This document shows positions 10,065 to 33,374 of a stretch of 64,000 nt of DNA, one piece after another; the first letter of the stretch is position 1, and the number at the start of each line of letters is the position of its first letter. A program made the position numbers and the translations under genes. The stretch lies in the NCBI GenBank assembly GCA_951406725.2, contig OX597814.1, forward strand, positions 199,392,001 through 199,456,000, given 5' to 3'. The stretch is from Octopus vulgaris (Eukaryota). A model generated the notes under the pieces. It had not been told where the DNA came from. It was given only the letters and a program-made list of their open reading frames with translations, and did not search any database.

Positions 10065-10380
10065 TTTTCTTCTATTCTTTTTACAGTTTCAGTCGTAGGA
10101 CTGCGTCCATGCTAGATCACCGCCTTAATTTGCTTTCTATCGGTTTTGTTTTCGTTTTATGGCTGGAGGTTGGTCTATGATTGTGTTTGTGGCAGCTGAT
10201 TTTTCCAGTTTGTGTATCCTTAAATGGTTGGCTGGTCTTGTATCGTCGTTAGGAATCTATCCAATGTTTTTTTTTTTAATGTTACAGTAGAAGTTCCTTT
10301 TATATTTCTGACTTCTTTAGGTAGAGAGTTTAACAGTTGAGGACCTCTAAATGTCAGACTGTTACAACTGAGTGCTGGGG
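10065..10380 (-). mobile_element. CR1-like LINE 3' end (ORF2 C-terminus plus 3' UTR)
   Basis: NSLTFRGPQLLNSLPKEVRNI...LDRFLTTIQDQP*, then the tail aaggcggtgatctagcatggacgcagtcctacgactgaaac. Confidence 0.75.
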
Positions 10381-33049: not shown

Positions 33050-33116
33050 GAAGTTCTTCATTTCATTTCATCTAGTTTCAGCTCACGAGCTGTGGCCATG
33101 CTGGGGCACCGCCATT
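33050..33116 (-). mobile_element. CR1-like/SINE-A-type 3' tail fused to the 5S
   Basis: Minus strand tggcggtgccccagcatggccacagctcgtgagctgaaactagatgaaatgaaatgaag. Confidence 0.8.
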
Positions 33117-33121
33117 GAAAG

Positions 33122-33241
33122 ACATTTACAGCACCTAGGTTTCCCAAGTGGTCAACCATCTAAGTACTAACTAGGCTCGACTTTGCTTAACTTCGATGAT
33201 CGGACGAGAACCGGTGTTTTCAAAGTGATATGGCCGTAAAC
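33122..33241 (-). rRNA. 5S rRNA: 5S rRNA gene or recent pseudogene (full length)
   Basis: GTTTACGGCCATATCACTTTGAAAACACCGGTTCTCGTCCGATCATCGAAGTTAAGCAAAGTCGAGCCTAGTTAGTACTTAGATGGTTGACCACTTGGGAAACCTAGGTGCTGTAAAT. Helices I (GTTTACGGC/GCTGTAAAT), II (ACTTTG/CAAAGT) and V (CCTAG/CTAGG) pair. Confidence 0.93.
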
Positions 33242-33251
33242 AAAGAAAATT

Positions 33252-33321
33252 TGACCCCGACGTGATTCGAACACGCGGCCTTCTGATCTGGAGTCAGACG
33301 CTACCGTTGCTCCACAGCGTC
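33252..33321 (-). tRNA. trnW-CCA: tRNA-Trp(CCA), probably a pseudogene
   Basis: GACGCTGTGGAGCAACGGTAGCGTCTGACTCCAGATCAGAAGGCCGCGTGTTCGAATCACGTCGGGGTCA. Anticodon arm and T arm/B box are intact; there is a 2-nt D-stem deletion and a G:G acceptor mismatch. Confidence 0.88.
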
Positions 33322-33374
33322 AAACATGTCTATGATTTCCTAGTAATTGTTCTAAAGATGGGGTTCTCTACCAT

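Follow-up and report, generated by a model that had tools for sequence, protein, structure and literature searches.

How did a tRNA-Trp, a 5S ribosomal RNA (rRNA) and a long interspersed nuclear element (LINE) tail come to lie in line in the Octopus vulgaris genome? The question is raised by a locus on the minus strand of a 64,000-nucleotide (nt) stretch of contig OX597814.1 (assembly GCA_951406725.2, positions 199,392,001 to 199,456,000), referred to here as the window. The initial annotation had read it as a short interspersed nuclear element (SINE) with a tRNA and 5S head or as a retrocopy of a read-through tRNA-5S transcript captured by template switching, with linked tRNA-5S genes as a further possibility. 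We conclude that the unit is probably a three-part chimeric retrocopy of a pre-tRNA, a pre-5S RNA and a LINE tail, produced in a single insertion by two template jumps of a LINE reverse transcriptase (RT). The tail is the 3' end of a LINE, and many RNA polymerase III (Pol III) precursors are joined there in sense by their U-rich 3' ends, with junctions of their own.

The unit (33328-33057) was resolved into the following parts.

33322..33328, minus strand: putative 5' leader of the tRNA-Trp precursor, 7 nt, an exact match upstream of gene L032/L125
33252..33321, minus strand: tRNA-Trp(CCA), decayed copy (Rfam RF00005, 44.7 bits)
33242..33251, minus strand: probable 3' trailer of the tRNA precursor, a 10-nt spacer with TTTT (9 of 10 nt as in the trailer of gene L125, by eye)
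33122..33241, minus strand: 5S rRNA copy, full-length from base 1, of the variant called type A (Rfam RF00001, 108.3 bits)
33117..33121, minus strand: presumed first 5 nt of the 5S precursor 3' trailer, cut upstream of the T-run (the trailer recurs, longer, in loci L128-L132)
33071..33116, minus strand: LINE 3' end, 46 nt, with two predicted hairpins at 33114-33093 and 33092-33079 (exact 41-mer in 1755 copies)
33057..33070, minus strand: terminal repeat of the LINE, TGAAA in about 2.8 units (the same repeat terminates other copies)

The order of parts described in the initial annotation was thus confirmed. The Rfam match to the 5S (33241-33123, minus strand) spanned the full model, and that to the tRNA (33321-33252, minus strand) had the anticodon CCA and a 2-nt gap. 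As ARAGORN returned no tRNA call over the whole 64-kb window, the tRNA-Trp copy was regarded as decayed; compared by eye, it differs from intact genes by four substitutions and one 2-nt deletion, and the 5S differs from other type-A copies by four substitutions. In metazoans, a run of four Ts such as that in the spacer, to which the initial annotation gave no weight, is a Pol III terminator. The tail starts at 33116/33115, and the LINE-derived part measures about 55 nt in all. A terminal (GAAAT)n array had been reported; the repeat is present, but at 33070-33057 it amounts to the short run listed above.

Copy number of the tRNA/5S junction

Both gene-like readings of the locus turn on whether the tRNA/5S junction recurs, and we searched the animal's own genome (2.8 Gb) for it. 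Junction patterns were exact, so that diverged copies could escape them, and reversed-pattern controls gave no matches in any pattern search. The exact pattern for this junction matched once, at the locus itself, and so did a general pattern consisting of any tRNA T-arm followed by the 5S start. A search with the whole unit, in which 40 of 2214 candidates were scored, returned 39 hits besides this locus. All were 5S plus tail only; one begins 8 nt into the T-rich spacer, and none includes the tRNA. No tRNA was seen near the 5S and tail in 29 inspected loci. From the tRNA side (40 of 60 candidates scored), no 5S lay within 1.5 kb of any of 29 other tRNA-Trp loci. To the extent that exact patterns can show it, the tRNA/5S junction has one copy, and there is therefore neither a tRNA+5S SINE, which would have dispersed copies with both junctions, nor a set of linked tRNA-5S genes.

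The order of the parts and the 10-nt spacing do resemble dicistronic tRNA-5S genes such as those of Yarrowia. Nevertheless, a gene of this kind, or a retrocopy of its read-through transcript, is extremely improbable here, given that the exact patterns gave no second copy genome-wide, that the other tRNA-Trp loci lack a neighbouring 5S, that the tRNA is decayed and that TTTT separates the two parts.

The LINE tail and its many passengers

Searching the two junctions separately, as had been suggested, gave a very different count for the other one: a 5S end followed by the tail matched the exact pattern 49 times, with linkers nearly all different. There are at least 62 loci with 5S plus tail. Among the 53 loci with an exact tail start (of 61 5S-chimera loci), 51 distinct linkers were found, two of them occurring twice each. 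The linkers form three groups, each tied to one of three 5S variants and cut at differing lengths, and they carry extra purines in variable number. By rough typing, each 5S variant and the common tRNAs were found with two to four tail subtypes. Base 1 of the 5S was reached in 21 of 61 copies. Five of the six exact type-A copies keep the same trailer though joined to other tails or to a whole SINE (L128-L132). As this trailer persists with different 3' partners, we infer that the linker is the 5S precursor's own 3' trailer. At L128-L132 (1500-1700) and L286, the fusion partners of pre-5S and pre-tRNA copies are other element ends or whole SINEs, at least five in number, and precursor capture is therefore common to several retroelement families in this genome.

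A 5S-derived head and a LINE-derived 3' tail are the anatomy of a SINE3 element. Descent from master copies with a common head-tail junction was not seen: 51 of 53 linkers are distinct and the subtypes are mixed. Since nearly every copy has its own junction, the 5S-plus-tail loci are not one SINE3 family. Membership of this locus in such a family, or in a composite tRNA+5S-headed one, would suit the Pol III head and LINE tail, the number of 5S-plus-tail loci and the few recurring junctions (the two repeated linkers and one T-arm string seen three times). We regard it as very improbable, because the tRNA/5S junction is single-copy, linkers are nearly all distinct, head and tail subtypes mix freely, and this 3' end is abundant among LINE copies, which according to Kojima is the situation to be expected where chimeras arose independently (PMC4494074).

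Transfer RNAs were also found on the tail. A T-arm motif followed by the tail gave 85 matches at 84 loci, with 82 distinct strings; some of the 85 are SINE ends or chance matches (e.g. L108, L111 and L179), and part of the loci were screened by script alone. Relaxed ARAGORN made 55 calls with 24 named anticodons on the 84 loci, and Rfam supported a tRNA in 12 of the first 20. Low-threshold ARAGORN calls made elsewhere, apart from these 55, were discarded as noise. When the first 64 of the 1755 exact tails (contig C1) were sorted by script, 22 led into LINE body, 38 were bare, three had tRNA-like heads and one had U6. Two of the 38 nominally bare tails carry tRNA sequence by eye (L080 and L220, the latter at 32.2 bits), and the tRNA-like head of L072 was not confirmed. 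Unusual tRNA-like heads outside the standard tRNA sets were seen at L072, L118, L220 and L163; L118 scored 36 bits and L220 32 bits, and L072 and L163 scored nothing.

The U6 case (L062) is a full U6 plus tail, with 106.9 bits. Locus L284 reproduces gene L285 with its short leader, its intron and its trailer; similarity stops at both ends, and L286 is a second copy of the same gene on another tail. As L284 keeps these precursor parts and nothing further, the captured molecules are, to judge from their sequence, primary transcripts. Genome-wide, RNA-plus-tail fusions number more than a hundred.

Two further sets of loci concern passengers of this kind. At L053:1497-1610, a tRNA-Trp copy with trailer is joined directly to a variant of the tail, the one that the window's SINE family carries. 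On C27 and C29 lie five tRNA-like 3' fragments with tail that resemble one another (L174, L175, L176, L183 and L184), three of them with identical junction strings; their shared flanks suggest DNA duplication, or alternatively they may be a nascent family.

The partner LINE was identified from the tail. Over 41 nt, the tail matches exactly the 3' end of a LINE family other than that of the window LINE at 10065-10380. LINE body stands upstream of the tail in 22 of the 64 sampled copies, an RVT_1 domain (E 7e-24) marks the longer copies as RT-encoding, and the reading frame ends about 24 nt upstream of the tail. From its protein motifs we tentatively assign this LINE to the CR1 group. The LINE at 10065-10380, to whose tail type that of the unit had been assigned, was rejected as partner and is only a relative (tail 72% over 61 nt, protein 47% over 47 amino acids). 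An older broken LINE fragment at 16868-16247 (minus strand) encodes protein 28% identical to that of the partner LINE, and at L123:8790-8940 the 3' end of a LINE copy is repeated in inverted orientation directly behind the tail.

The stem-loop character ascribed to these tails held for the unit and for a window SINE tail but not for the LINE at 10065-10380. The tail of the unit folds into two hairpins (z -2.06, with 8 of 200 shuffles equally stable), the SINE tail at 21606-21550 folds likewise (z -3.35), and the tail of the window LINE has no such fold (z 0.14). We also examined where LINE copies end on their 5' side, using 30 of 3364 copies chosen by their 3' 25-mer. Eleven end where the first hairpin has its foot, in a zone 4 nt wide; 10 end inside the tail, two in the next 80 nt and seven beyond 200 nt. 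The window's SINE tails start at roughly the first-hairpin-foot position. No ribozyme was found at the junction among six weak Rfam matches (E<=10) over the LINE 3' end, and hammerhead, hepatitis delta virus-like and twister layouts, compared by eye with the junction, did not fit.

One insertion or two

The arrangement at this locus, a copy of cellular RNA in sense to a 5'-truncated LINE 3' end, is that of a LINE-mediated chimeric retrocopy. The source of its tRNA part could be narrowed down. Its 7-nt leader is exact to that of gene L032/L125 (G000:C6:80710676), and the remaining 27 of the 28 Trp loci in the comparison share 2 nt or fewer with it; in the trailer, 9 of 10 bases agree with the same C6 gene. 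Similarity ends upstream of the leader, and the wider flanks match no better than shuffles. As leader and trailer match the C6 gene and the wider flanks do not, the tRNA part seems to have been retrocopied from the precursor of that gene; the same confinement of similarity to the transcript is seen more clearly in L284 and L285. The DNA downstream of this stand-alone C6 gene is not 5S. The retrocopying and template switching of the initial annotation therefore come close to our reading, but its read-through source does not stand. Intact tRNA-Trp gene clusters and intron-bearing tRNA-Leu-like gene clusters were noted at G000:C6 ~58.38-58.46 Mb and G000:C29 ~8.82 Mb.

The tRNA part has no tail of its own, and its trailer abuts base 1 of the 5S. 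The downstream flank is single-copy, with no second tail or repeat behind the unit, and for the upstream flank the one match is a local duplicate of 80 nt. No paralogous empty site was found, both flanks being single-copy apart from that duplicate. It is 91% identical and flanks the unit on both sides (33451-33375 and 32658-32579); a second local duplicate of 289 nt and 93% lies nearby (33747-33460, 31977-31689 and 11155-11017). These duplicates sit too distant from the unit ends to be a target duplication.

On our reading, copying by the LINE RT would have begun at the target, with priming on the terminal repeat, and gone on through both hairpins until the enzyme ran off its template, a short remnant of RNA that was probably shielded by protein. 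From there it would have jumped to a pre-5S RNA, starting at the 3' end and copying through to base 1, and then a second time to a pre-tRNA-Trp, which it would have copied up to the start site. The resulting unit is most probably dead, as the tRNA is decayed, a T-run stands between tRNA and 5S, and no further copies were found.

Several observations weigh against this reading. A target-site duplication around the unit was not found (the best flank matches are 5 nt), which leaves one event unproven. Decay is nominally heavier in the tRNA part, with five events in 72 nt against four in 170 nt, though not significantly so (Fisher P=0.13, counts by eye). The 7-nt leader match is short, and five of 378 pairs among the other Trp loci share at least 7 nt, many from one cluster. 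The ends of other repeats are frequent sites for such elements (L010, L113 and L197), so insertion is non-random. No further three-part unit was found among 137 loci (84 T-arm and 53 5S), although several might be expected because about one in eight junction-ended tails carries a head. The exact 68-nt type-A pattern gave six dispersed copies, all chimeric, and no 5S gene array; the assignment of the trailer therefore rests on its recurrence with different partners. Finally, the truncation hot spot is broad, including the 10 of 30 copies that end inside the tail.

Some of these points would be accommodated by two steps, in which a 5S-plus-tail chimera inserted right behind an older tRNA-Trp pseudogene or tailless retrocopy. 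This order of events would fit the lack of a bracketing duplication, the nominally greater divergence of the tRNA and the frequent insertion of chimeras at repeat ends. However, the join sits at the trailer T-run and at 5S base 1, and the tRNA has the leader and trailer of another gene, yet lacks its own tail. With assumed numbers and no targeting, a 5S-tail copy would come to lie 5 nt or less from the end of a tRNA trailer with a probability of ~0.0005-0.003, at most 0.003. We consider two steps unlikely, though the foremost of the alternatives.

The three RNAs could also have been ligated into one molecule by an RtcB-like activity and reverse transcribed once. Base 1 of the 5S normally bears a 5' triphosphate, and nascent Pol III transcripts normally end in a 3'-OH. 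RtcB, however, requires a cyclic phosphate and a 5'-OH, and its ligation falls sharply with a 5' triphosphate (PMC6789731). The variable extra purines of the linkers are what non-templated addition would be expected to leave. Ligation has been demonstrated for U6/L1 in human cells (PMC6789731), the recurrent 5' end of the tail would fit nuclease cleavage, and U6 plus tail is present in this genome; even so, we judge ligation improbable at this locus.

Relation to known chimeras and to the origin of SINEs

Two template jumps have precedents. Tripartite chimeric retrogenes with a proposed double template switch are WEIRD/Mg-SINE/MGL in Magnaporthe and B2/U6/L1 in mouse (PMC2104539). Like the octopus unit, these consist of three sense transcript copies ending in a LINE 3' end, and their switch sites are preferred ones. 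Their LINE part is 230-5461 nt long, their junctions fall at 28 sites in 33 elements, and direct repeats of 14-16 bp prove one event (PMC2104539). The octopus unit, by contrast, has a LINE part of about 55 nt and a single narrow junction zone; each of its two passengers is a Pol III precursor, and we found no direct repeat around it.

Mammalian U6/L1, tRNA/L1 and 5S/L1 chimeras likewise have a small RNA 5' of a truncated LINE, with U6 full-length and in sense (PMC11838501, PMC6789731). Human tRNA/L1 chimeras (n=21) are mostly halves and mostly antisense, and the 5S ones are likewise few, partial and mostly antisense (PMC11838501). Unlike these, the octopus chimeras are whole sense precursors with leader, intron and trailer. 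In Dictyostelium, a SINE-like 5S retropseudogene, 5S fused to a LINE end, was reportedly made by template jumping; by its title the report concerns one element, with no added tRNA.

A short LINE part is shared with the U6-L2 and U6-Mon-1 chimeras of platypus and the U6 chimeras of Anolis (PMC4476161). In these animals U6 is joined to L2, RTE and SINE ends, the LINEs have stringent 3' recognition, the target duplication is short or absent, and template switching is proposed as the way SINEs acquire tails (PMC4476161). That work surveyed U6; in the octopus, an invertebrate, many tRNA kinds and three 5S variants are involved. SINE3, AmnSINE1 and MEG-TR share with the octopus loci a 5S head with a LINE tail, or 5S and tRNA together (PMC4758252, PMC10946416). 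They are families amplified from masters, whereas here each copy is a separate join, and in AmnSINE1-type elements the 5S lies 5' of the tRNA part (PMC4758252, PMC10946416), the reverse of the order at this locus. The kind of chimera is thus already known, from U6/L1 and the tripartite elements; what is new is the fixed junction, the capture of whole sense Pol III precursors and the scale. We found no account of such chimeras in cephalopods in the literature covered; older papers and Repbase fell outside that scope and may bear on novelty.

A wider proposal, which we put forward tentatively and rate a little short of probable, is that the LINEs of this genome act as a standing 'SINE factory', in which the RT halts at the base of the hairpin that serves for its 3' recognition and switches end-to-end to a nascent Pol III transcript, at times twice in succession, yielding hundreds of independent proto-SINEs. 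If this conjecture were right, and we lean slightly to the doubtful side, the joins would lie at the start of established SINE tails and would record, as a fossil map, where Pol III starts and stops. With the same reserve, this locus might then be a rare double jump, whose join at 5S base 1 would separate jumping from RNA ligation.

By itself the locus is a dead curiosity, and its value lies in the genome-wide class that it exposed. In annotation, copies of that class will be mistaken for tRNA genes, 5S genes or a SINE3 family. Template switching is a long-standing proposal for the birth of SINEs (PMC5786205, PMC4758252), and the founding step, in which a small-RNA head gains a LINE tail, is usually inferred from finished families. 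In the octopus, more than 100 separate joins at one narrow site are preserved and their source genes can still be traced; template jumping and RNA ligation therefore become testable against each other, and it can be asked why few joins amplify and most do not. These fusions likely show how new SINEs begin.
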